Assembly: GCA_016932785.1 (NCBI GenBank)
Contig: JAFGCJ010000002.1
Span: forward strand, 529,777 to 593,776
From: Candidatus Dojkabacteria bacterium
GTDB taxonomy: Bacteria > Patescibacteriota > Dojkabacteria > SC72 > JAFGCJ01
Reading direction: 5' to 3'
Length of the DNA stretch: 64,000 bases
Position numbers and translations under genes: made by a program. Below are positions 8,175 through 61,438 of the stretch, piece after piece. Positions within the stretch are counted from its first letter, which is position 1. Each line of letters starts with the position of its first letter. The notes below the pieces were generated by a model that was not told the DNA's origin, made no database searches, and saw nothing but the letters and a program-made list of their open reading frames with translations.

Positions 8175-8402
8175 ATAAATAAGTCTTATGAATTTATGAA
8201 GTATTGTTTCTGTAATCCTATTATAATACTAACAATGGTAGAAGCCATATGCAATACCGAACTAGGTCCTTTCCGCACCACATCTAACACACTTTTGCCT
8301 ATGCACACAAATGAGATCTCCGCACTCCGGACACTCCCACCTCTCTTTCTCATCTCTAACAAATTGTCTTATTCCACTGTTCTCAATATTTTCAAGGTTC
8401 TC

Positions 8403-8489
8403 CGGAGAGAGCGGGATTCGAACCCGCGGTACCGGTAAAGGTACACTCGCTCTCCAAGCGAGCGCTTTCGGCCACTCAGCCATCTCTCC
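8403..8489 (-). tRNA. tRNA-Ser (anticodon GGA), CCA not encoded
   Basis: The reverse complement reads GGAGAGATGGCTGAGTGGCCGAAAGCGCTCGCTTGGAGAGCGAGTGTACCTTTACCGGTACCGCGGGTTCGAATCCCGCTCTCTCCG. The acceptor stem is GGAGAGA/TCTCTCC, the anticodon loop is TTGGAGA (GGA), and there is a long variable arm. Confidence 0.88.
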
Positions 8490-8557
8490 AAAAAGATCTG
8501 AACGATTATAATTTCACAAATTAGGAATTTTCAAGTCCGCATGTTCTCACAATCACA

Positions 8558-11107
8558 CTACTCAGAATTTTGAACGTCCTCTTCTACTTCCGATTCCTGC
8601 TGGTCCTCCTCATCTGGAACAATATTTTCTACGGTTACAGTGATTCTTCCATCTCTGCTGGGCATTCTCCAGAATATCTTTGGGAACCATGACGGATAGA
8701 ATTCAACCTCGGGTTCGCCAGATACATAGTCTAACTGCTTGAGAAACTTTATTCCCTCAGCCCAACCCTTACCCTGCAGCCCTTTCTCAATTTTGGATTT
8801 ATCTAACCTAGGCATTACAAACCCAGAGACAGAAACGCTCAGGACAACCTTCCCTTCATCCATAGATACGGATTTTACCTCTATCGTCTTTTCAATGTTT
8901 TCAGAAATTTCTAGATCCTCAAGGTCACTGTCTTCATCAATGCTATCAAGCAAAAGCTCTTCTATAAGTGCATCCAGTGAATTATTGTCATAATACAAAG
9001 CCGAACTCTTGGTCTTAAGGCTTACATTAAATGTCTCTTCCTCAGCACCAGCGGGCACATCTGATTCTACATCACCATCCACTTCATTTTTTACCGACTC
9101 CGGAACAAAAAACCAACGAGATTCCTGTCCTTCCCTTTCAAGCTCTCCTTTTGCTTCATCAAATAAACTTTTTTTAAGACTGTCCGCCACTTTGTCGATA
9201 TCATCCTGACTTACAACCTTGTATTCTGTCTTACTTCCTCCCGTCAAAGGATTTAAATTCTTCGCGCTTACTTGTCCAAGATCATAACTACCAACCTGAA
9301 GCGTAGTATTTGCCTCAAGATTATATTCTTCTCCCACTTCCGCAGCTACAACTGTCCCATCTGCCTGAGTCATAGGAGCAAAGTCAGGTTTCGCCAAAGT
9401 AACCGCACCCTGAAGTATAAAGTTGAGTCCGCCATTGGAAAGTACTGTTCCCGAAGGAACAACAACCTCTTCGTCAGTTGTATTAAACAGAGTCACCGTC
9501 CCCGATGCTTTCTCCCCTCTTGCCGCGGTACCCGTAGCAGTCCCATTGTCGGAACCATTCTTCAGAACCTCTTCTCTTTTTGCTGGAATCTTTAATTCCT
9601 CCTTATCCCGTTCATCAACCGATGTCAAAGCAATAATCTCTCCCTCATATTCCACTGAAATACTCTCTACCTTTACTTCCGCAATAACCTCCGGAAGATA
9701 CCAAATCAAAAATGCCATCAAAACAACAACGATAACAAGAACAGGTATCAAAATCTTGGTCGCATTTTTTCCTTTAAGAAAAACTTTGATCTTTTGAATT
9801 AAACCTGAAATGAATGATCCCGCGACTCCCAATCCTTTTTTCAAACCATCACCTGCTCCAGACATTACTCCACCCGATTTTTGTTCCGGAGGCATTCTAC
9901 CTGAGTCAGGAACTCCGGTATCTCTTTTAGGAGGTAAATCATCAAAAGATGAAACCTTTTTAGCACCCACGGCTTCATAACTAGCAAAATCCCTTCCAAC
10001 CAAACTCCGTGTCTTTTCTACCGGTTCAGAAGGTACAGATTTTATCTTTCCAACCGGCTTCTCCTTAGAAACAGAACCCGCCAGACTGGACGAATCCAAA
10101 CTCTGTTTTGCCAGCGGTGGTTCAACACCAGGCGACATAGAAGACACCTCCGGTCCAGAGGCAGCACTAACCTCTCCGGCTGACATACCAGCCCCAACAG
10201 CACCACCTATTGAACCTGACACCTTTGAGCCTCCGGACATAGTAGAGCTATCTACCGTCATTTGGAAATCGCCATCACTGACCTCGCGAACTGAGGTCTG
10301 TTTTTGAGCTTCTACTTTCGTTTCGGAAGGCGTATCTTGTCCCCCCGCTGTGTCTTCCACAGAGTCTTCAAAATCAAGTTTCTCATCAGTACTGGATTCT
10401 TCAGTTTCAACATCATCAACTTCCTGACCCGGAACACCTTGAGACTCTTCAGGTGAGGTTATTTTTTCTTTCATACTAACCACATCCTCTGGTTTTTCTG
10501 TATTCTCAATCTTTTCTGGCCCCAAATCTTCACCAGTTTTCACACTTTCAACATCTATCTTCTCTTCCAAGCCCTTCTTTTTTCTATCTTCAGCAAGTTT
10601 GCTGGATTGTTCCCAATCACCGTCCTCAACCGAATTCATAGACGGCTTAGCAACAAGACCTGCCAGGGAAGCCATTCTCTGCCCCGTTTTATCATCAGTA
10701 ACAAGCAGGATATTCTTCTTTAAAGCATCAGCAGCACGGACAATTAGATTCATAGAAACCGTACTGACCAGAAGATCACTTCCCGCTGGAATAGATATCA
10801 CTATCCTATTCGAGGGACTATCCTGGATTTTCTCAAGTAAGAAAGGTATCTCATCCTCAACATCTGTAATGATTTTAAAAACTGAATTATCGGCTGATTT
10901 AGTGATTACTTGGGATTTATCTGAAGCCCCAACTGAACCCTTATTTTCCTTAACAGTTTTTTTTACTCCTGTTTCTTTCTTTTCTATTTTCTTCTCAGAC
11001 TTAACCTTTTGATCATCACCCTTACCAGATTTACCAGAAGGCTTCTCCTTTGGGGTGGACGATTTAACACTTTTCTTTTTGGTCTTTTCTTTATCTTCTT
11101 TTGGCAC
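8558..11107 (-). CDS. 849-aa bitopic membrane protein: Lys/Ser/Glu-rich cytoplasmic N-half, one TM, beta-rich ectodomain (baseplate-J-like, tentative)
   Basis: Single TM helix ILIPVLVIVVVLMAFLIWYL around aa 455. The N-terminal part is low-complexity (KEDKEKTKKKSVKSS...). The C-terminal block GTATGTAARGEKASGTVTLFNTTDEEVVVPSGTVL resembles proteins often annotated as the baseplate J/gp47 family. It lies 10 nt downstream of the FtsA/PilM-like gene. Confidence 0.6.
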   Translation of the reverse strand: MPKEDKEKTKKKSVKSSTPKEKPSGKSGKGDDQKVKSEKKIEKKETGVKKTVKENKGSVGASDKSQVITKSADNSVFKIITDVEDEIPFLLEKIQDSPSNRIVISIPAGSDLLVSTVSMNLIVRAADALKKNILLVTDDKTGQRMASLAGLVAKPSMNSVEDGDWEQSSKLAEDRKKKGLEEKIDVESVKTGEDLGPEKIENTEKPEDVVSMKEKITSPEESQGVPGQEVDDVETEESSTDEKLDFEDSVEDTAGGQDTPSETKVEAQKQTSVREVSDGDFQMTVDSSTMSGGSKVSGSIGGAVGAGMSAGEVSAASGPEVSSMSPGVEPPLAKQSLDSSSLAGSVSKEKPVGKIKSVPSEPVEKTRSLVGRDFASYEAVGAKKVSSFDDLPPKRDTGVPDSGRMPPEQKSGGVMSGAGDGLKKGLGVAGSFISGLIQKIKVFLKGKNATKILIPVLVIVVVLMAFLIWYLPEVIAEVKVESISVEYEGEIIALTSVDERDKEELKIPAKREEVLKNGSDNGTATGTAARGEKASGTVTLFNTTDEEVVVPSGTVLSNGGLNFILQGAVTLAKPDFAPMTQADGTVVAAEVGEEYNLEANTTLQVGSYDLGQVSAKNLNPLTGGSKTEYKVVSQDDIDKVADSLKKSLFDEAKGELEREGQESRWFFVPESVKNEVDGDVESDVPAGAEEETFNVSLKTKSSALYYDNNSLDALIEELLLDSIDEDSDLEDLEISENIEKTIEVKSVSMDEGKVVLSVSVSGFVMPRLDKSKIEKGLQGKGWAEGIKFLKQLDYVSGEPEVEFYPSWFPKIFWRMPSRDGRITVTVENIVPDEEDQQESEVEEDVQNSE

Positions 11108-15709: not shown

Positions 15710-15874
15710 TTAACATTAAACAACTAACATAATATTCAATCTTTTTCCAATGCATTATAAATACAAAAGTAAAATATTGCACGGAAAGATACTAGCCTAA
15801 ACGGTCGGAAATTAATAACGACGCAGAAAATTAATACGTTCTGAAGGGCAGAAATCTATATTTTTCCAGGTTAC

Positions 15875-16102
15875 TTAGTCAATCGAGACAATCACGTAGT
15901 CAACAGCACCACCTAATGTTTGGACAGAGACGGTATCCTCTACCCTCTTGTTCATCAACGCCTTCCCAACAGGAGAATTTTGAGAAATCTTATTCTCTGT
16001 TGTGTCCACCTCACCAGGTCTGACGATCCTGAGTGTACGCTTTTTGTGGTCGCACTGAATAGTTACCTTGGAGTAAAGATGAACCGATTGTTCTTCTTTC
16101 AT
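15875..16102 (-). CDS. stand-alone GreA/GreB C-terminal-domain protein
   Basis: 75 aa. KISQNSPVGKALMNKRVEDTVSVQTLGGAVDYVIVSI matches the GreA C-terminal globular domain (IS..SP.G.AL.G). There is no coiled-coil N-domain. Confidence 0.65.
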   Translation of the reverse strand: MKEEQSVHLYSKVTIQCDHKKRTLRIVRPGEVDTTENKISQNSPVGKALMNKRVEDTVSVQTLGGAVDYVIVSID

Positions 16103-16260
16103 AGATAACTGGGATCTAAGCTAATTGTGTTATTATAACACAAAATTATATCTGTCGTCAAATCAGAACACCACGACCAAATTAATCTTTGTTACATGAC
16201 GGTGTCACAAATCAAGGCATATAAAGCTTTACAGAGACTATGTTTTAAGATCCTGAAATA

Positions 16261-16269
16261 TGTTATAAT
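16261..16269 (+). promoter_or_regulatory. extended -10 promoter TGtTATAAT upstream of the second TrmB gene
   Basis: tgttataat at 16261-16269, 50 nt upstream of the ATG at 16319. Confidence 0.4.
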
Positions 16270-16318
16270 CAACTAACATTTCTTTTCATAAAGAAAATAA
16301 AGTGTTAAAAAACAATAA

Positions 16319-21677: not shown

Positions 21678-21783
21678 AAATAAATGTATCGTTATAAATT
21701 AACAAGTGCACCAAAAAAGCACACTAACATAATCACTACCTGCGGTAGCTAGAAGGGATTGTACAACCAGGCGTAAAATTTTG

Positions 21784-22053
21784 CTACTTATCTATCTTTA
21801 AATCCTTAAGAAGCTTCTCGTAACGATCAGAATCTTTGCGCTTAAGGTATTCAAGCAAACGCCGTCTTTTACCAACCATCTTGATTAAACCACGACGTGA
21901 ATGATTATCTTTTTTGTGGCCTTTCAAGTGTTCTCCAAGCTTGTTTATCCTCTCAGTAAGTAATGCAACCTGAACTTCAGGTGATCCAGTATCACCTTCA
22001 TGTGAGGCAAATTTCTTCATTATTTTCTTTTTCTCACCAACCGTTAGTGTCAT
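21784..22053 (-). CDS. rpsO: 30S ribosomal protein S15
   Basis: 89 aa with [37 protein letters not shown]. Confidence 0.95.
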
Positions 22054-22093
22054 AATATCAATTTATCACACAAAGTAATTACACGCAACTCAC

Positions 22094-26892: not shown

Positions 26893-26901
26893 CGTGACAG
26901 T

Positions 26902-26930
26902 ATTATAAATTTAGTTACATACAAAGGCAA
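26902..26930 (-). promoter_or_regulatory. sigma-70-type promoter of the nusA block (-35 TTGCCT, 17-nt spacer, -10 TATAAT), only 9 nt before the ATG
   Basis: On the minus strand, TTGCCT (26930-26925), 17 nt, TATAAT (26907-26902), actgtcacg, ATG (26892). Confidence 0.5.
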
Positions 26931-26993
26931 TGAAGGTATCTTATTTATCTGACCTTTCTACCAACATACATTGCAAAGATCTGAAGGCCAAAT

Positions 26994-27020
26994 AAAAAAG
27001 GGATCCCTAAATCCCTTTTC
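26994..27020 (-). terminator. Rho-independent (potentially bidirectional) terminator
   Basis: aaaagggat (26996-27004), loop ccctaa, atccctttt (27011-27019). This is a 9-bp stem flanked by an A-tract and a T-tract. It lies downstream of the 27110..27295 gene and upstream of the nusA promoter. Confidence 0.65.
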
Positions 27021-27109
27021 TAAATACAAGTTACCTTGCAACAATTATAGCACAAAAAGATCACAGCCAACAGGACGGAGAAATAATTCTATATCGCCCT
27101 GTTGGCTGA

Positions 27110-27295
27110 TCACAGGCCCGTGAAGTCGATAATGCTGATAATACACGAGCCTACTGATGCGGCAATGAGGATAACAATGATAAACAAAATCAAAAAACCT
27201 CCCCATTCGCCTTCCTTGAAGGCCCCAGCTAGACCTTGGAACAACACCCCAAGGATCTCAAACGGAGCCTTTAAAACTCCCCACAATATTTTCAT
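27110..27295 (-). CDS. 61-aa small membrane protein
   Basis: A strong Shine-Dalgarno sequence AAAGGAGG lies 5 nt upstream of the ATG. There is one clear TM helix (GGFLILFIIVILIAASVGSCIISII). The overlapping plus-strand ORF starts with TTG and lacks an RBS. Confidence 0.6.
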   Translation of the reverse strand: MKILWGVLKAPFEILGVLFQGLAGAFKEGEWGGFLILFIIVILIAASVGSCIISIIDFTGL

Positions 27296-27413
27296 TTTTT
27301 CCTCCTTTGTGGGATAATTTTCAGCACAATTATACTATGGGACAGAAGAATATTCTACAGCCTGGAAAAGAAAAAGATTATCGTTGAAAAATGTAACTTC
27401 AACATTACTCCAG

Positions 27414-49605: not shown

Positions 49606-49633
49606 GTAAAATCTTCCATATGTTTCATCAAAA

Positions 49634-49672
49634 AAGAGAGGCCTTCAAGTGCCTCCCTCTTTATTTGTTTTT
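49634..49672 (+). terminator. probable Rho-independent terminator
   Basis: agagaggc (49635-49642), loop cttcaagt, gcctc-cc-tct (49651-49660; a 5+3 bp stem with a 2-nt bulge), followed by ttatttgttttt. Confidence 0.45.
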
Positions 49673-49995
49673 AGCTTAGATCCATTATCGCCCTTATGGA
49701 GGATCGATATCAGATAGAAATCGTTCAAAGAGCCATACTACCTTCGGTTTCGATGTTGTATGACTGCTTTGCCTCATATTAAATATTCTTAATTTAATAT
49801 AAACAGATAATAACCCACCGCAAACTACATCGCTTGATATAATTCTGATAAATTCATGATCACTCAGCCGCTCATATCAGAGCAGCAAGAACCGCCGATA
49901 CAAAAAGAAAAATCCCCAATAGGTCAGAAAACTCTACCGACCTGACGCAATATTGACCAAAAACCAACCACAACTTTTGCTCACTTTTTTTACAA

Positions 49996-50931
49996 TCACC
50001 TATAAACTCTTCTTCTGAGGTCAATTCCCAAATAAAGGCCCACTACACACTGATATCCCAGTTCAGTGCTAAACATACTCAGTAATTGGTCGGGGGGAAC
50101 CCCAACCCCAAAAATATTCATTGCACAATGCCTTGATACTTCAGACAATAGCAGGACGGCCAAATCCTCACTAGGCAAGGCCATTCTCGAACACAGCACC
50201 GCCATGTGAGTAATACTCTTGTACCTACCGCTACCTTTCAGACCAGGAAAAGTTTCCACCAACCGCTCATAATCAGGCTCACTCATAACATACTTCTGCG
50301 CCACAATATCCAAAACCTCCTTCAGGGGCTCAAGCTTATCAGTTACTGGATGAATTCTAGCATCACTTTCAGCAACATCAGCTCCAACACGTGAATAGAA
50401 AAGCAGGTATCCCCATTCTCTAAGTGCTGCTATACCATCAGAATTTGCTAAATGATCAAAGACTTCAGGATCAGCCACAAGACCCAGAAGGCTACAACAA
50501 ACATCATCCACAAACCGCAAAGCATACTCTCTTCCCCTATTATTCATCTGATCAAGTTCAGCGGCTATACCCGTAACGGCTTCTAAAGCATGACCGACTC
50601 CATCATCTTCATGTAAACAGATTAGGTAAAGCAATTGATGAAATCTTCTATCTTCCGGATCTTCCTGGTTGTAACACCAAAGTCCATAAAGATATGTACC
50701 CATCCTTGAAGAAGACTCTGCTGGACTGATATGGGAAACGTCTGCCAGACCCTCAATTCCATCAACAGTGCCTGAAGGATATATTGAATATAAACCGTCC
50801 TCATTATAAATCGTAGAAGCATCAGCTTCTTTCAACCACTTCTGTTGAGTTGTCTCCCCTGATCCGATGATATCAGATGAGTGAAACCATTGCGGGCCAA
50901 GAGAGTACCCTGTCGTCTCGTTTCCTTGCAT
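49996..50931 (-). CDS. orphan protein (311 aa), mostly helical, atypical composition
   Basis: ATG start. It is rich in Gly/Leu/Asp/Arg/His/Cys and Lys-poor, with no known motif. It is flanked by unusually long non-coding regions of 390 and 852 nt. Confidence 0.65.
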   Translation of the reverse strand: MQGNETTGYSLGPQWFHSSDIIGSGETTQQKWLKEADASTIYNEDGLYSIYPSGTVDGIEGLADVSHISPAESSSRMGTYLYGLWCYNQEDPEDRRFHQLLYLICLHEDDGVGHALEAVTGIAAELDQMNNRGREYALRFVDDVCCSLLGLVADPEVFDHLANSDGIAALREWGYLLFYSRVGADVAESDARIHPVTDKLEPLKEVLDIVAQKYVMSEPDYERLVETFPGLKGSGRYKSITHMAVLCSRMALPSEDLAVLLLSEVSRHCAMNIFGVGVPPDQLLSMFSTELGYQCVVGLYLGIDLRRRVYR

Positions 50932-50938
50932 GCCCCGG

Positions 50939-50947
50939 ATTGTATCA
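50939..50947 (-). promoter_or_regulatory. extended -10 promoter TGaTACAAT exactly 7 nt upstream of the ATG at 50931 (leaderless candidate)
   Basis: The minus strand reads atatgatacaat ccggggc ATG, the same geometry as at 5732-5750. Confidence 0.4.
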
Positions 50948-51039
50948 TATTAGCCCAGTAGACTTTAACTATAAGACTTGAAACTTGTACCAGGTCTTAT
51001 TTCCAGTCTTGAAGATTACTGGCCTATAGGATATACTCT

Positions 51040-51710
51040 GTACCGAGCGGTGGGTTCCAGCGGTGCATGGGGAACGAAAAAAAAAATACAGAAAGCCGCA
51101 CTGCCATTTCAGAAGCGAAAAAAAACCAACCGAACTCACCGCTCATGCAAAAACGCCCCAGGAGAATACAGATCTTTAATGTCAACAGAGAAAACCTTTT
51201 TTCCATTGACTTCCCTGTATTCTCCTGCTTCACCCCAATTTTCAAGAATTTCCCTGATATCACGCCATTGTGGTTAGATTCCAACAAAGCTATAATTATC
51301 GTGTTTCGTGCTCTCGCGGGCTGGACCCTTGTAGAATTTGACCAATAAAACCCGCGAGGAAAAATGGAACACATCGACGTCATCTACAAGGGTTCAAAAA
51401 CAACAGCGAGGAGGAAAAAGTAACAAATCACAATTTCAAAAACTTCCCTCCTTTCTTACTCCATCTTCCTCGCTGATTTCCTCAAAATCTTTCCTTGATT
51501 TTTATAACATTATGGGATAGCATTCTTATGGGACGGCAGCCCAAGGGCATTTGCTATCCTCCTTTCGCTGTGACTCCTTCTTACAAAGGTCTTTCGTTAC
51601 AGACACCAAAAGGGGTCACAGGAAAACTACAGCAGGGAAGACAACGATTAAGGTTTGAGAAGAATGATTTTCTTTTTTTCTTTTACCTTCTTCCATCTTC
51701 CCTGCTGATA
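51040..51710 (+). ncRNA. candidate large structured RNA / structured lepA leader (unclassified)
   Basis: Eight local stems of 8-14 bp sit in a region with no credible ORF: 51045-52/51137-44, 51159-71/51215-27, 51313-20/51351-58, 51322-35/51383-96, 51404-15/51464-75, 51515-22/51552-59, 51568-79/51610-21 and 51630-41/51696-707. All non-Watson-Crick pairs are G-U on the plus strand. Confidence 0.35.
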
Positions 51711-51783
51711 CCCACTTCCTTCCAAACCCTTCCCATAATACACGTATTGACTACCTGCCATTTTTCCCCTATTCTCAACACCA

Positions 51784-53577
51784 ATGCAAAACACTAGAAA
51801 CTTTTCAATAATTGCGCATATAGACCATGGGAAATCCACTCTTTCAGATAGATTCCTGGAACTGACTGGTTTGAAGGATCCAAGTCGAGATAAATCAGAA
51901 AGAGTGCTGGACCGACTGGACCTTGAGCAAGAAAAAGGAATTACTATAAAACTCCAGCCTGTACGGATGAACTACAATGGTCACATCCTAAACCTTATCG
52001 ATACACCCGGACACGTTGATTTTTCCTACGAAGTCTCACGCTCTCTTGCCGCTTGTGAGGGCGCAATCCTTCTTGTCGACGCCTCACAGGGAGTTCAGGC
52101 ACAAACACTCTCAACCACACGTAAAGCCAAAGAGATGGGTCTCAAAATCATACCTGTCCTAAACAAAATAGACATTCCAAATATCGACATAGACAAGAGA
52201 AAAAGAGAGTTTTCAGAAATAATTGGTTTTAATGAAGATGAAATAATTCTCGCTTCAGGGAAAACAGGTGAGGGAGCAAAAGAGATTTTAGACAGAATAA
52301 TTAATGATATTCCTGCACCAGAGGGATACTCAGAAGCTCCACTACAAGCCCTTATTTTTGATTCCTTCTATCATGAACACAAGGGCGTCATTGCTGCAGT
52401 AAGAATATTCAATGGACAAATATCTGCTACTCAGAGTCAAAAACTTCACCTATTGAAAAACGGTAATAATTTCTCACCAAGAGAAATCGGGTTTTTTGAG
52501 CCTGATCTTGAAGTGACAAAGGAAATTTCTGCAGGAGAGGTTGGCTACATTGCTACCGGTGTAAAAGACATTCGGCTTTTTGCCATCGGAGATACAATTT
52601 CTGATTCTCCCAAGACCAAACCACTTCCCGGCTACAACCCTCCAAGGCCTAGGGTTTTTGCAACCCTTTTCCCATCGGATCCAGATGACTTTCATATTCT
52701 TTCCGACTCGCTCACAAAGTTAAGTATGAATGACGCAGCACTTACGGTAACACAACAAAAATCAAATATCCTAGGTTCAGGCTTCAGGTGTGGATTTCTT
52801 GGAATGCTTCACATGGAGGTTATTCAGGAGAGACTAGAACGGGAGTACGACATGTCCCTTGTAATAACGGCTCCCTCGGTCGAATACAAAGTAAAACTTA
52901 CCAACGGCGAAACGCTGAATGTCCAAACCGCCAGTGAATTTCCTGAAGTAACTCAAATACAGGAAATCAAAGAACCCTGGGTAGATGTAGAGATCTTCAC
53001 TCCACAGGAACACATGGGCCCATTGATGGAACTTTGCCAAAATAGTCGAGGAATCTACAAGGATACAGAGTACCTATCACGCTCAGAAAATTTCAAAATG
53101 GATTACATACTGCTGAAATATGAGCTTCCGTTAATGTCTATCATCACAAACTTCTTTGACAATATGAAATCTTTATCAAGTGGCTATGCTTCCCTTGAAT
53201 ATACAGAATCCGGATATAAACCCGCCGATATAGTGAAAGTAAGTATACTCGTAAACTACGACGAAGTCCCATCTCTGAGTTTTCTCGAGACAAGAGACAG
53301 AGCCGAAAACAGAGCCCGAAAAGTCTTGGAATCACTTAAAAAAACAATACCACAACACCAGTTTAAGATTGCAATTCAAGGAGCAATAGGCGGAAAAGTG
53401 ATAGCAAGAGAAAACATCAGCGCCAGAAAAAAAGATGTTACAGCAAAGCTGTATGGCGGCGATGTCACACGTAAAAAGAAACTTTGGAAGAAACAGAAAG
53501 AGGGAAAGAAGAGACTAAGAGAAATCGGCGGAGTCAATATTCCACAGGAGGCCTTCCTGTCGGTTTTGCAAAGTTGA
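51784..53577 (+). CDS. lepA: elongation factor 4 (LepA)
   Basis: NFSIIAHIDHGKSTLSDR, DTPGHVDF, NKID, and the LepA C-terminal domain with a basic tail. Confidence 0.95.
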   Translation: MQNTRNFSIIAHIDHGKSTLSDRFLELTGLKDPSRDKSERVLDRLDLEQEKGITIKLQPVRMNYNGHILNLIDTPGHVDFSYEVSRSLAACEGAILLVDASQGVQAQTLSTTRKAKEMGLKIIPVLNKIDIPNIDIDKRKREFSEIIGFNEDEIILASGKTGEGAKEILDRIINDIPAPEGYSEAPLQALIFDSFYHEHKGVIAAVRIFNGQISATQSQKLHLLKNGNNFSPREIGFFEPDLEVTKEISAGEVGYIATGVKDIRLFAIGDTISDSPKTKPLPGYNPPRPRVFATLFPSDPDDFHILSDSLTKLSMNDAALTVTQQKSNILGSGFRCGFLGMLHMEVIQERLEREYDMSLVITAPSVEYKVKLTNGETLNVQTASEFPEVTQIQEIKEPWVDVEIFTPQEHMGPLMELCQNSRGIYKDTEYLSRSENFKMDYILLKYELPLMSIITNFFDNMKSLSSGYASLEYTESGYKPADIVKVSILVNYDEVPSLSFLETRDRAENRARKVLESLKKTIPQHQFKIAIQGAIGGKVIARENISARKKDVTAKLYGGDVTRKKKLWKKQKEGKKRLREIGGVNIPQEAFLSVLQS

Positions 53578-53622
53578 AAGATATTTTGATACTGGAGTTC
53601 TAACAGATCGTAGGTATGAATC

Positions 53623-54762
53623 CTATTCTTTAACTCTATGCAAAAGCTCTCGATACATTCTGTTTAGAAGACATACCCAATAGGTATCGCACAGATTTGC
53701 ACGAACTTCAGGATTGCCAAGAATTGGAACTGTTGCCTCAGCTATAGGAAAAAGTCGTCCTCCATCACAACGCAGGACATTATAGGTTGAACCAAACAGG
53801 GTAGTTCTCTTAGTTAATCTCAAAACCTGTTCAATTTCTGATCCCTGTCCTCGGATAATATCGACTCTTGAATTTCTAGAATCGACACGTCCGTCAGGGA
53901 AACATACAGTATATCCATCTGACAATTCCACCGGATACATCCTTCCTCCATAACTAAGAACTGACATGTCACCCAACATTGTCCAGAATCCTACCAGACT
54001 CTTAACAGGTTCTATTAGTACACCTGCCTCTACGTTACTCCCACAAAGTCCACTCTTCCATAGGCGAATCAACTGTCTACCTCTAATCTGTTCTATAAGA
54101 TATTTCATACCATCTTCGTATCCCCTAAGCGATCTTTCAATCCTGCGCCGAGGGTTAGAAGAATCAATAATATCAAGAACGCCTCTATAGCTGAACAGGT
54201 GACTCAGCGTTCCGCCAGATAATTTTTCGGTCGGCGGCTGATTGGTATCACCAATAACTATATGGCTTAAGCTAATCGGAGCACCGGGAAGTCCATTTTC
54301 CTGACACCATGCTACCCTCAAAGCATACCCGAGTCCTTCACAACTATCATTTTCACCTTCGGACCTTGCACCATCTTCAGGCCACCTACCCCATCCAAGT
54401 CCATCCATTCTCACATTTATTCCACCATATAAACCAGGAATTTTTATATAGAAATCAAAACCCATGGGAGATTGCCCATAAGCAACTCCATCAAAAATAG
54501 TTATCCAGCAATCTTGAAAAGTTATTACGCCAGGGCCTTCATCCTCTGCAATTTCCCTGACCAGATTCACCATCTCCAGAAGGAGTGCGTGGACAGGACA
54601 ATCCGTTCCAACCGTATCCCATATGTGCCGATCGACCTCAAAGGTATGAGTATATACTGGACCCTTATCTTTGTCAGGAGGCCTCGCGTCACCTATATCA
54701 AATGCAACCGCAGGGTCTTGAAGATCGACCCCCACTGGTACTGAACCTACAGCCAAATCCAA
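53623..54762 (-). CDS. orphan 'GFxW-module' family protein, member E (379 aa, long form, unlinked copy)
   Basis: MGFDFYIKIPG (compare D MGIEFHIRAGG), INVRMDGLGWGRWPED, and VGFWTMLGDMSVLSYGGRMYPVELSDGYTVCFPDG (compare B DGFLGFAETVAMYSGERSLTCYPDG). The ORF opens with TTG, so the start is uncertain. Confidence 0.65.
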   Translation of the reverse strand: MDLAVGSVPVGVDLQDPAVAFDIGDARPPDKDKGPVYTHTFEVDRHIWDTVGTDCPVHALLLEMVNLVREIAEDEGPGVITFQDCWITIFDGVAYGQSPMGFDFYIKIPGLYGGINVRMDGLGWGRWPEDGARSEGENDSCEGLGYALRVAWCQENGLPGAPISLSHIVIGDTNQPPTEKLSGGTLSHLFSYRGVLDIIDSSNPRRRIERSLRGYEDGMKYLIEQIRGRQLIRLWKSGLCGSNVEAGVLIEPVKSLVGFWTMLGDMSVLSYGGRMYPVELSDGYTVCFPDGRVDSRNSRVDIIRGQGSEIEQVLRLTKRTTLFGSTYNVLRCDGGRLFPIAEATVPILGNPEVRANLCDTYWVCLLNRMYRELLHRVKE

Positions 54763-54880
54763 AATTCTAATAATTTATCCCATAGTGAAGTATTCTACCT
54801 CTGTCGTCCTATTTTATCAACACTGACTAGTGTCACAAAAACAAAAACCTGTCATAAACCACTTAAGCACTACTCCACTA

Positions 54881-54889
54881 TGGTATCAT
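54881..54889 (+). promoter_or_regulatory. extended -10 promoter TGgTATCAT 9 nt upstream of the recF ATG
   Basis: tggtatcat (54881-54889), tagatctgc, ATG (54899). Confidence 0.35.
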
Positions 54890-54898
54890 TAGATCTGC

Positions 54899-61188: not shown

Positions 61189-61190
61189 TA

Positions 61191-61394
61191 ATGACAAGTT
61201 CCAATATTCCACAAAAAGTAGATCCCAACAGCATATCTGAAGATCAAAAAAAGAAAGATCTTGAGGTTCTCCTTTCCGGAAAGGAACAAAGCGATATAAG
61301 AAAAAAAATTCAGAGAGATCAGGCATTTGGATCTGATACTCCTAAACCCCAGAAAGGATTAAACGAAATCAAGAACCCCTTCCGAGATGAATAA
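61191..61394 (+). CDS. 67-aa hydrophilic protein, last gene of the T4SS-like module
   Basis: It starts 2 nt after the VirB4 stop. It is Lys/Asp/Gln-rich with no TM helix. Confidence 0.4.
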   Translation: MTSSNIPQKVDPNSISEDQKKKDLEVLLSGKEQSDIRKKIQRDQAFGSDTPKPQKGLNEIKNPFRDE

Positions 61395-61438
61395 TCATAC
61401 CTATATTTTCATAGAATCAAAGAAGAAACGGTACTACC

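Follow-up and report, generated by a model that had tools for sequence, protein, structure and literature searches.

A hairpin-dense non-coding region upstream of lepA in an uncultured Dojkabacteria bacterium, tentatively read as a structured RNA

The gap between lepA and a divergent gene for a 311-aa protein in an uncultured Dojkabacteria (CPR) bacterium is filled by a dense series of inverted repeats. Our best guess from the sequence, to which we would give a probability of roughly 0.36, is that this region represents a lineage-specific structured RNA transcribed from the plus strand; palindromic DNA derived from an insertion is nearly as likely. The comparisons described below establish that the helices are present and exceed statistical expectation, that the region is non-coding, that some of its hairpins are local paralogues, and that it is absent from relatives.

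A series of hairpins in a non-coding gap

The first-pass annotation had considered this gap, located within the 64-kb stretch of DNA that was analyzed (here, the window), to be free of coding ORFs, and our analysis agrees: all six frames were negative on a codon-usage model under which each of 35 real genes scored positive in its own frame. No ORF of the region had a Pfam match above threshold, and neither tRNA nor tmRNA genes were found in it. The coding density of the window is high, as expected of a small CPR genome, and the genomes of these bacteria are very small and tightly packed. A pseudogene remnant was rejected after tblastx comparison with the genes that fill the same slot in relatives (Trans_reg_C, GreA, and others) gave nothing, and a replication origin was discarded too, with a cumulative GC skew that is monotonic over the window. 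The GC content (42%) is host-like. The Logan assembly of run SRR13394437 has a contig with the identical sequence, so that an artefact of one assembler is probably not the origin of the region.

All the helices proposed by the first-pass annotation were recovered at the same positions (Table 1). One of them, H0, had been described as an 8-bp helix and is actually a 13-bp stem with one G-T. The long hairpin that abuts the start codon of the ORFan (HA) was absent from that list. Pairing extends beyond the terminal repeats, as the interiors of H1, H3, H4, and H5 are also paired, and the minimum free energy (MFE) fold has a single long-range closing helix, the rest being a string of local hairpins. 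The bases of the hairpins differ in sequence, with CAG...CTG in H1, H3, and H5 and TGGACC...GGTTCA and GAGCGG...CCGCTC in others. The polarity of H4 is reversed with respect to H1, H3, and H5, its pyrimidine-rich arm coming first.

Table 1. Features of the hairpin-dense region and its neighborhood (window coordinates)
Feature	Position	Strand	Arms or motif	Description
311-aa gene	49996..50931	-		Divergent ORFan; coding-like, host-like codon usage
Hairpin-dense non-coding region	50932..51783	+		852 nt, between divergent 311-aa ORFan and lepA
HA	50936..51040	+	Core inverted repeat 50971-80/50991-51000	Long imperfect hairpin, ~105 nt, abutting ORFan start codon; fold z -3.6 plus, -1.3 minus
Promoter-like site	51009..51037	+	TTGAAG-17-TATACT	7 nt upstream of H0; implied start ~51044, about the first base of H0
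H0	51045..51144	+	51045-57/51132-44	13-bp closing stem, one G-T; 74-nt interior with A10 and A8 tracts and a sub-helix
H1	51159..51227	+	51159-71/51215-27	Perfect 13-bp stem; 43-nt interior that folds further; fold z -6.4
Helix around H2 5' arm	51313..51358	+	51313-20/51351-58	Perfect, GC-rich, 8 bp; pseudoknot or alternative pairing
H2	51322..51396	+	51322-35/51383-96	14-bp stem, one G-T; 47-nt interior
H3	51404..51475	+	51404-15/51464-75	12-bp core stem, one G-T; extendable to 24-nt arms with 79% complementarity; H5 paralogue
Hx	51515..51559	+	51515-22/51552-59	Perfect 8-bp helix GGATAGCA/TGCTATCC and small inner hairpin; fold z -1.2, alone not significant
H4	51563..51626	+	Core 51568-79/51610-21	12-bp core, one T-G; extends to 17-nt arms with 82% complementarity; fold z -5.0
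H5	51630..51707	+	51630-41/51696-707	Perfect 12-bp stem; 54-nt interior, palindromic in itself; fold z -8.5; H3 paralogue
Unstructured tail	51708..51783	+		76 nt, only 3 G; MFE -0.1 kcal/mol
Promoter-like site	51747..51775	+	TTGACT-17-TATTCT	Ends 8 nt before lepA ATG
lepA (elongation factor 4)	51784..53577	+		Conserved anchor gene; product 100% identical to NCBI Candidatus Dojkabacteria protein

The dense structure claimed for the region was borne out by both inverted repeats and folding, which were far above shuffled sequences. Scanning for stems of 12 bp or more with no more than one mismatch and a loop of up to 100 nt, we found that 6 of the 20 in the whole window fall within these 852 nt, a density of ~7 per kb versus 0.22 per kb in the remaining window and 0.57 per kb over 645 kb of unrelated loci. 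Dinucleotide shuffles of the region (n = 1,000) had a mean of 0.18 such stems and a maximum of 3. Perfect stems of 11 bp or more (loop of up to 100 nt) behaved similarly, with 3 of the 5 in the window located here versus a mean of 0.03 in the same number of dinucleotide shuffles. Perfect 8-bp helices, by comparison, are expected ~1.4 times in the region by chance, so the three short helices carry no weight alone. The same applies to the pseudoknot that had been proposed around the 5' arm of H2.

As RNA, the plus strand has an MFE of -247 kcal/mol (z of -9.9 with 20 shuffles and -7.7 with 40) and the minus strand one of -263, with a z of about -3; with DNA parameters, the z values of the two strands were -4.9 and -3.3. 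Coarse sliding-window fold z-scores were noisy. Among other non-coding gaps of the window, four (15710-16318, 21678-22093, 61189-61438, and 8175-8557) gave fold z values between 0 and -2.6, and two (615-856 and 26893-27413) owe their structure to a recurring palindromic motif and to hairpins with short loops that resemble terminators.

Local paralogues, strand, and promoter-like sites

Three of the hairpins, H1, H3, and H5, are spaced ~235 nt apart and seem to have diverged from a common local unit. The resemblance is clearest between H3 and H5, which have arms and flanks in common, with 16 of 18 nt shared in the 3' arm (a score reached by 3 of 2,000 shuffles), whereas their loops are only 39% identical. 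The differences between them comprise two adjacent pair-preserving double changes and one G-U to A-U change. Two double changes in 12 pairs were, however, equaled by 130 of 500 shuffles and come from two sequences only, and they are not significant. H1 was the best match in the window, outside the training sequences, of a covariance model built on H3 and H5 (19.4 bits, E value of 0.19); a match in the locus of a relative scores equally, and H1 is a weak relative of the other two. The loop of H2 repeats the 5' arm of H3 (51343-60 versus 51395-412). A tandem repeat finder detected no long-period array, the ~235-nt periodicity being visible only through the arms of H1, H3, and H5.

Every wobble pair had been described as G-U on the plus strand. 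This is correct for the four core stems that contain one (4 versus 0, p of about 0.06) and fails in the extended stems, where three A-C juxtapositions appear; in the MFE folds there are 15 G-U pairs on the plus strand versus 24 on the minus. Wobble pairs are thus a weak indication of strand. The fold excess over shuffles was greater on the plus strand for every hairpin, and the summed hairpin energies were -202 kcal/mol for plus versus -194 for minus. Since the helices are nearly all Watson-Crick, both strands, and also single-stranded DNA, fold comparably.

One promoter-like site precedes H0 and another precedes lepA (Table 1). The number of promoter-like sites in the region is not above the shuffle expectation, and the site before H0 is to be taken as a lead only. 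Essentially no Shine-Dalgarno (SD) sites are found in this genome, and several of its genes have -10-like boxes near their start codons. Taken with the promoter-like site near the ATG, this suggests that lepA would need no leader from the region, and lepA appears to have its own promoter adjoining its start codon. No intrinsic terminator (GC-rich stem, 3-to-8-nt loop, and T-run) was found in 50932-51783, where hairpin loops measure 24 to 74 nt, and no hairpin of the region is followed by a U-tract. The hairpin within codons 18 to 41 of lepA (51837-49/51894-906) lacks conservation in relatives and probably arose by chance.

The locus in relatives and searches elsewhere

Scanning GTDB genomes for LepA retrieved relatives with only ~50% identity, while a protein database provided others with 71 to 77%, and seven of these loci were compared. 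Their lepA upstream gaps measure 2, 82, 102, 120, 252, 572, and 767 nt, and neither blastn nor tblastx found any similarity to the region in the seven. The first-pass annotation had taken a lack of conservation or covariation in relatives as grounds to reject an RNA. At this distance conservation is indeed lacking, but the absence is only weakly informative because the collections contain no genome of the same genus. The slot between a conserved gene for a 186-to-189-aa protein and lepA differs in every relative examined, and so does the slot after lepA. One relative (L144) has at the same place an unrelated 767-nt insert with 49% GC in a locus of 40% GC, for which Rfam gave no match.

The divergent neighbor is an ORFan. 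Its 311-aa protein retrieved only itself among 5.8e9 proteins (word-indexed search) and among 1.84e9 representatives (full HMMER), and it belongs to no Pfam, PADLOC, or PHROG family. Its single-sequence AlphaFold (AF2) model had a pLDDT of 47.6, too poor for a fold search. A 379-aa ORFan considered as its possible relative turned out to be unrelated. Since the slot is hypervariable and holds an ORFan, the neighborhood looks like recently acquired DNA, and the 311-aa gene together with the hairpin region may be regarded as one lineage-specific insert.

We were not able to find the element elsewhere. Rfam assigned no family to it, the gathering-threshold search of the whole window returning two tRNAs only. 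When positions 50700-51900 were searched against Rfam 15 at E values up to 10, the best matches were eukaryotic miRNA-precursor models, with 14 to 22 bits versus thresholds of 38 to 135; these are generic hairpin matches. The hairpins are not copies of a genome-wide REP or MITE repeat in the ~72 kb of the genome that were searched, since blastn and the covariance model found no copy outside 51151-51714 in the 64-kb window, nor in ~8 kb of adjoining contigs (L140 and L141); ~100 kb from relatives were also negative. Distant blastn searches of phages and plasmids found no similar DNA. Pattern scans of IMG/VR for H0, H1, H2, and H3/H5 gave 0 matches or 2 chance matches in high-GC contigs. In JGI metagenomes, a strict H3/H5 pattern had 0 matches, and the 52 matches to a loose one were rejected as unrelated hairpins from loci of higher GC (0.45 to 0.76) with no blastn similarity. 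A search of the literature on non-coding RNA in Dojkabacteria found nothing useful.

Interpretation and comparison with known systems

We infer transcription of the region, its strand and start point, and any function from the features described above. The region would be a lineage-specific non-coding insert in a hypervariable chromosomal slot between the conserved 186-to-189-aa gene and lepA, organized as seven or eight consecutive hairpins of 65 to 105 nt with short linkers. Local duplication of a ~235-nt module, from H1 to H3 to H5, would account for at least some of its growth. Its action would most likely be at the RNA level, through a plus-strand transcript of ~0.7 kb that starts near 51044 from the 51009-51037 site and folds into a string of independent hairpins. 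Such a transcript would probably be a separate RNA or upstream read-through rather than an obligatory leader of lepA, since that gene seems to have its own promoter right at the start codon. That each hairpin has its own stem sequence fits selection on pairing better than selection on a protein-binding site.

In favor of the RNA reading we counted the strong local excess of hairpins, unmatched in comparably long gaps of the window, the paired interiors, the pair-preserving changes between H3 and H5, the G-T pairs of the core stems on the plus strand, the plus-biased fold excess, the promoter-like site near H0, the lack of dispersed copies, and the same sequence in the Logan contig. Against it we counted the lack of an Rfam match, of a homologue in the relatives and collections searched, and of a terminator, promoter-like sites at chance level, the long, uninterrupted, and nearly pure Watson-Crick stems, the comparable folding of both strands, the ORFan neighborhood, and a compensatory signal reduced to two sequences and two adjacent pairs that 130 of 500 shuffles equal.

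DNA-level palindromes with no RNA role are nearly as likely. In that case the region would have come in together with the 311-aa ORFan, as the non-coding portion of foreign or mobile DNA. It could consist of units of the foldback or MITE type, or it could have served an integrated plasmid or virus as a hairpin-rich origin or control region, with local duplication following. Slots that differ on both sides of lepA in every relative examined, a neighboring gene without homologues, and the unrelated insert of L144, which shows that foreign DNA does land here, all point in this direction. So does the structure of the units, where the terminal inverted repeat is the best-preserved part, as in transposon ends (H1, H3, and H5 with CAG...CTG), and the stems are almost pure Watson-Crick, with significant folding of both DNA strands; uninterrupted stems of 12 to 14 bp are commoner in DNA inverted repeats than in evolved bacterial RNAs. 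However, no further copies exist in ~72 kb of the genome or in the relatives, the sequence flanking the hairpins shows no target-site duplications, the nearby genes encode no transposase, integrase, or Rep domain, and phages, plasmids, and IMG/VR hold nothing similar. Moreover, six differing stem sequences would require six recognition proteins, and both the GC content (42%) and the codon usage of the ORFan are host-like. It is rather unlikely that the region is a functionless spacer in which tandem duplication and template-switch (quasi-palindrome) mutation made and sharpened the repeats without selection. Its presence in one genome only would agree with this, the perfect stems could be young, and the "compensatory" changes affect two adjacent positions, for which one templated event per arm could suffice. 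Yet 852 nt of junk would be unusual at such a high coding density, the other non-coding gaps of 250 to 610 nt in the window lack such repeats, and a run of seven closely linked hairpins is far above the background of 0.22 per kb in the window.

Two other readings keep transcription and change its role or direction. Being directly upstream of lepA and on the same strand, the region might be a long structured cis-regulatory 5' leader. Read-through into lepA would then be modulated by competing helices (51313-20/51351-58, 51352-61/51466-75, and H3), perhaps together with a 19-codon ORF located by eye at ~51365-51424. Mutually exclusive helices do occur around H2 and H3, no terminator was found between the region and lepA, and the final 76 nt, unstructured and G-poor, would suit SD-independent initiation. 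We consider this quite improbable, as the upstream regions of the seven relatives are short or unrelated, a promoter-like site ends 8 nt short of the ATG in a genome that uses no SD and often has -10-like boxes near starts, no hairpin has a U-tract behind it, and the alternative helices, of 8 to 9 bp, are at chance level. A transcript of the minus strand, whether an antisense RNA or a long 5' UTR belonging to the 311-aa ORFan, seems very improbable. With its start at 50931, the ORFan is transcribed in the direction away from the region, whose base skew is like that of minus-strand genes, and the minus fold also beats shuffles (z of about -3) and is lower in absolute MFE (-263 versus -247); still, z is weaker on the minus strand for every hairpin, the core-stem mismatches would become A-C on it, and no minus-strand promoter-like site was found within the region.

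If the plus-strand RNA reading is correct, its fullest version would be a novel CPR structured RNA of ~0.7 kb made of tandemly duplicated long-hairpin modules, with its own promoter and beside an ORFan, in a host without SD sites. This whole combination is unlikely. Such an RNA might be a scaffold or decoy for RNA-binding proteins or a precursor cut into small RNAs. To our knowledge, few non-coding RNAs are known in CPR bacteria beyond the universal ones, and a true structured RNA of 0.7 kb would be a rare large lineage-specific case that illustrates how such RNAs may originate by duplication of hairpin modules. Palindromic DNA derived from an insertion would instead flag the two sides of lepA as a recombination hot spot whose content is different in each relative examined. 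As a feature of a single genome, the region is at present valuable as a lead for metatranscriptomics, not as a finding.

Among known systems, the large bacterial non-coding RNAs (OLE, GOLLD, ROOL, HEARO/IscB omega RNA, and raiA) resemble the region in being several hundred nucleotides long, intergenic, and ORF-free and in folding far above shuffles. They are, however, defined by conservation and covariation over many genomes, while the region is a singleton without an Rfam 15 match and a plain string of local hairpins. Long regulatory 5' leaders (attenuators, T-box, and riboswitch) likewise precede a gene on the same strand and can form mutually exclusive helices, but here there is no terminator hairpin with a U-tract, no Rfam match, and no conservation upstream of lepA in relatives, and lepA appears to have its own adjacent promoter. 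At the DNA level, REP/BIME elements and MITEs (Correia, RUP, ERIC, and BOX) also form intergenic clusters of imperfect palindromes of 70 to 100 nt, with the terminal inverted repeats best preserved and hairpins formed if they are transcribed. The region has terminal inverted repeats and no flanking direct duplication visible in the sequence; those elements, in contrast, are dispersed and multicopy, with one shared sequence and often with target-site duplications, whereas the units here all differ, the related H1, H3, and H5 are confined to this region, and ~72 kb of the genome contain no further copy. Integron attC arrays are imperfect palindromes in series (57 to 141 nt) with differing sequences, folded single strands, and strand asymmetry, but the region lacks RYYYAAC/GTTRRRY core sites at the hairpin bases, cassette ORFs between hairpins, and a tyrosine recombinase among the neighboring proteins. 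Finally, although its hairpins are much longer (65 to 105 nt versus about 20 nt) and the MFE structure buries 10 of its 13 GGA triplets in stems, leaving them unexposed in loops, the region shares with the CsrB/RsmZ sponge RNAs both the abundance of GGA triplets and an architecture of tandem hairpin modules derived from local duplication.

Hairpin array between an orphan gene and lepA

The window belongs to the genome of an uncultured Candidatus Dojkabacteria (WS6, CPR/Patescibacteria), and the Logan assembly of run SRR13394437 carries the same DNA (7,794 of 7,794 bases identical). The window's LepA matches an NCBI Candidatus Dojkabacteria protein at 100% identity. The gap upstream of lepA is almost wholly tiled by hairpins, as HA, H0, H1, H2, H3, Hx, H4, and H5 follow each other in series with linkers mostly of 3 to 14 nt plus two ~90-nt spacers. 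The dense hairpins described in the first-pass annotation were confirmed, every helix being found where it had been placed, and were extended by adding HA, a longer H0 (a real helix, but a 13-bp stem with one G-T rather than 8 bp), and the apparent kinship of H1, H3, and H5 (see below). The last 76 nt are G-poor by count and essentially unstructured (MFE of -0.1 kcal/mol).

Features of the lepA upstream region (window coordinates)
Feature	Position	Strand	Description
311-aa ORF	49996-50931	minus	
Region	50932-51783		852 nt, between the 311-aa ORF and lepA
HA	50936-51040		imperfect hairpin of ~105 nt, new to this analysis
H0	51045/51137		
H1	51159-51227		
H2	51322-51396		
H3	51404-51475		
Hx			small hairpin between H3 and H4
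H4	51563-51626		
H5	51630-51707		
lepA	51784-53577	plus	

The excess of hairpins is large. Of the five perfect stems of 11 bp or more in 64 kb, three fall inside the region, as do 6 of the 20 stems of 12 bp or more that have one mismatch at most; dinucleotide shuffles of the region held a mean of 0.18 (maximum, 3) of the latter. Inverted-repeat density was 7 per kb versus 0.57 per kb in unrelated bacterial loci, and the plus-strand RNA fold had a z-score of -9.9 (-7.7 with more shuffles). The helices of 8 bp, among them the one proposed to form a pseudoknot (51313-20/51351-58), appear at about the chance rate (1.4 expected) and so are not to be counted as evidence. The earlier impression that no ORF here is coding held: all six frames were negative on a codon model that framed 35 of 35 real genes correctly, and the region's ORFs had no family matches above threshold.

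By sequence comparison, H3 and H5 are paralogues. The 3' arms with their flanks agree at 16 of 18 positions (3 of 2,000 shuffles score as high), and the 5' arms and an AAAAC.ACAGC lead-in match too, with loops only 39% identical. Going from H3 to H5, both bases are replaced in two neighboring stem pairs (G-C/A-U to A-U/G-C) and a G-U turns into A-U, which leaves 12 of 12 pairs intact. This divergence is only suggestive of selection on pairing, because just two sequences are involved and 130 of 500 shuffles do equally well; selection-free templated quasi-palindrome mutation could be its source. With a covariance model of H3 and H5 run over ~166 kb (the window, two adjoining contigs of the same genome, and seven relatives' loci), H1 was the best other match in the window, on the same strand (19.4 bits, E of 0.19); one match in a relative's locus scored the same, and nothing else of note was found. 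The start-to-start spacing (H1-H3, 245 nt; H3-H5, 226 nt) suggests that a two-hairpin module of ~235 nt was duplicated locally. This argues against the genome-wide REP/MITE repeat that had been raised as a possible refutation, with no dispersed copies in the ~12% of the genome inspected.

A second strongly structured gap (615-856) adjoins a tRNA gene, with z-scores of about -7 to -8 on the plus strand and about -6 on the minus strand. Copies of a near-palindromic 13-mer, GGGGTCAGACCCC, lie at 666-678, 766-778, and 782-794 (a weaker one at 683-694) and make 32-nt inverted arms, and the array is followed by a GC-rich hairpin, GTGGGCGG-AAA-CCGCCCAC. This gap had no Rfam match and looks like an operator array or small palindromic element. 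A 12/13 inverted repeat inside lepA codons 18 to 41 (51837-51849/51894-51906) is probably due to chance or codon driven, since it is not kept in the lepA of four relatives compared.

Variable slots around lepA

No genome in the GTDB species set had a LepA above ~50% identity to that of the window; a large protein collection gave relatives at 71 to 77% identity, from which seven loci were fetched for comparison. The clade shares a well-conserved gene order: rpsT, a 184-aa gene, a 186-to-189-aa gene, a variable slot, lepA, and a second variable slot, followed by an SMC_N/AAA_23 gene, a 279-aa gene, PrgI, TraC-like, VirB4-like, DnaK, GrpE, and HrcA. Within this order, both slots flanking lepA are hypervariable (window 49606-51783 and 53578-54898; relatives' loci L082 to L085 and L142 to L144). 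The content of the first differs from genome to genome, often being a minus-strand Trans_reg_C protein, sometimes with GreA or small unknown genes. Elsewhere in the window, a 75-aa minus-strand ORF (15875-16102), in a ~600-nt gap that seemed empty at first look, matches only part of the L083 GreA gene by tblastx and could be a GreA-like gene, either truncated or domain-only.

The noncoding gap before lepA measures 2, 82, 102, 120, 252, 572, and 767 nt in the seven relatives, and blastn/tblastx of window 49606-51783 against their loci found no similarity. In L083, the 572-nt gap is rich in A+T and has very little structure (z of -2.4). The 767-nt gap of L144 (9234-10000; LepA 71% identical) is structured (z of -6.1), unrelated to the region, and a GC-rich insert (49% versus 40% GC in its locus). 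By eye, it contains a near-consensus promoter (TTTACA-17-TATAAT, near 9261-9289), a terminator-like hairpin of 16 to 18 bp (9910-9951) with a run of pyrimidines after it, and a pair of small, highly basic ORFs with GGAGG-like (Shine-Dalgarno-like) motifs upstream; it is possibly a foreign small-gene cassette. Because the relatives' gaps are dissimilar to the region, a conserved lepA leader appears excluded at this evolutionary distance, which disfavors that version of the very long structured leader suggested at first pass. The region is part of a lineage-specific insert. No similar DNA was found in phage or plasmid records, IMG/VR, or JGI metagenomes, and the region is an orphan, seen in a single metagenome-assembled genome.

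In the window genome, the two slots hold unrelated minus-strand genes of 311 and 379 aa, whose products have an unusual composition (~2% Lys versus 8% genome-wide; high Gly, Arg, Cys, and Trp). The 311-aa protein retrieved only itself among 5.8 billion clustered proteins and in a full HMMER search over 1.84 billion representatives, and matched no Pfam, PADLOC, or PHROG family. Its gene has host-like codon usage, looks genuinely coding, and is a complete orphan. A 13-bp inverted repeat with one mismatch (54780-54792/54871-54883) covers nearly all of the 136 nt that separate the 379-aa ORFan from the SMC_N/AAA_23 gene, a divergent promoter region.

Strand, expression signals, and competing readings

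The Rfam search proposed at first pass gave no real family match for the region: Rfam 15 at gathering thresholds found only two distant tRNAs in the whole window and, at E values up to 10, only generic hairpin matches to eukaryotic miRNA-precursor models in the region. ARAGORN had no match, and no intrinsic terminator was found inside the region. Promoter-like sites were no more frequent than in shuffles; two are well placed, TTGAAG-17-TATACT ending 7 nt before H0 and TTGACT-17-TATTCT ending 8 nt before the lepA ATG. Almost none of 40 window genes has a Shine-Dalgarno motif at -20 to -4, and therefore a lepA lacking one is normal here. Several have TATAAT-like/-10-like boxes within 10 to 20 nt of the start codon, a sign of mRNAs that may have no leader or a very short one; a promoter abutting the lepA ATG would be plausible. 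In this organism, the GGAGG/CCTCC-like motifs of the hairpin arms do not serve as ribosome-binding sites. A pyrimidine motif, CCTCCTTTC(T), similar to the 16S rRNA 3' tail of many bacteria, appears twice in the region (51447-51456 and 51558-51570), and L144 has an identical 11-nt stretch directly ahead of lepA (9946-9961); this recurrence could be chance in pyrimidine-rich sequence.

The argument that wobble pairs indicate a plus-strand transcript stands for the four long helices with one mismatch each, all G-T on the plus strand (p of about 0.06), but does not generalize beyond them. The extended stems include three A-C juxtapositions, and folds of the same hairpins have 24 G-U pairs on the minus strand versus 15 on the plus. 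Summed hairpin energies are similar (-202 kcal/mol plus versus -194 minus), and the better plus-strand z-scores are mostly a composition effect, as minus-strand shuffles fold better because that strand is G+U-rich. DNA-parameter folds were significant for both strands (z of -4.9 and -3.3). Since the helices amount in essence to inverted repeats with Watson-Crick pairing, the array could be read as RNA, as single-stranded DNA, or as a cruciform. The RNA interpretation is neither supported nor refuted.

Three classes of explanation survive: structured RNA, palindromic insert DNA, and a neutral by-product. We tentatively prefer a plus-strand structured RNA (probability of roughly 0.36), which best explains a chain of hairpins that differ in sequence and have pairing interiors, and fits an excess that is local, core mismatches that are all G-T, and paralogues that diverged with their pairs preserved. 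That it acts specifically as a lepA leader is, beyond this, quite improbable. Palindromic DNA that came in with a foreign insert, or took shape inside one, is a somewhat less likely reading; it is favored by the hypervariable slot, the orphan 311-aa neighbor, terminal repeats that are perfect, and Watson-Crick pairing that is symmetric between the strands, while the lack of other copies, target duplications, and a mobility gene speaks against it. Duplication plus template switching could have left the array as a neutral by-product, an unlikely origin weakened by comparable gaps in the same window without such repeats. Least likely of all is a minus-strand UTR of the 311-aa orphan gene. As for known systems, the plus-strand RNA would be an unlikely match to a CsrB-like sponge, because 10 of the region's 13 GGA triplets are buried in stems.
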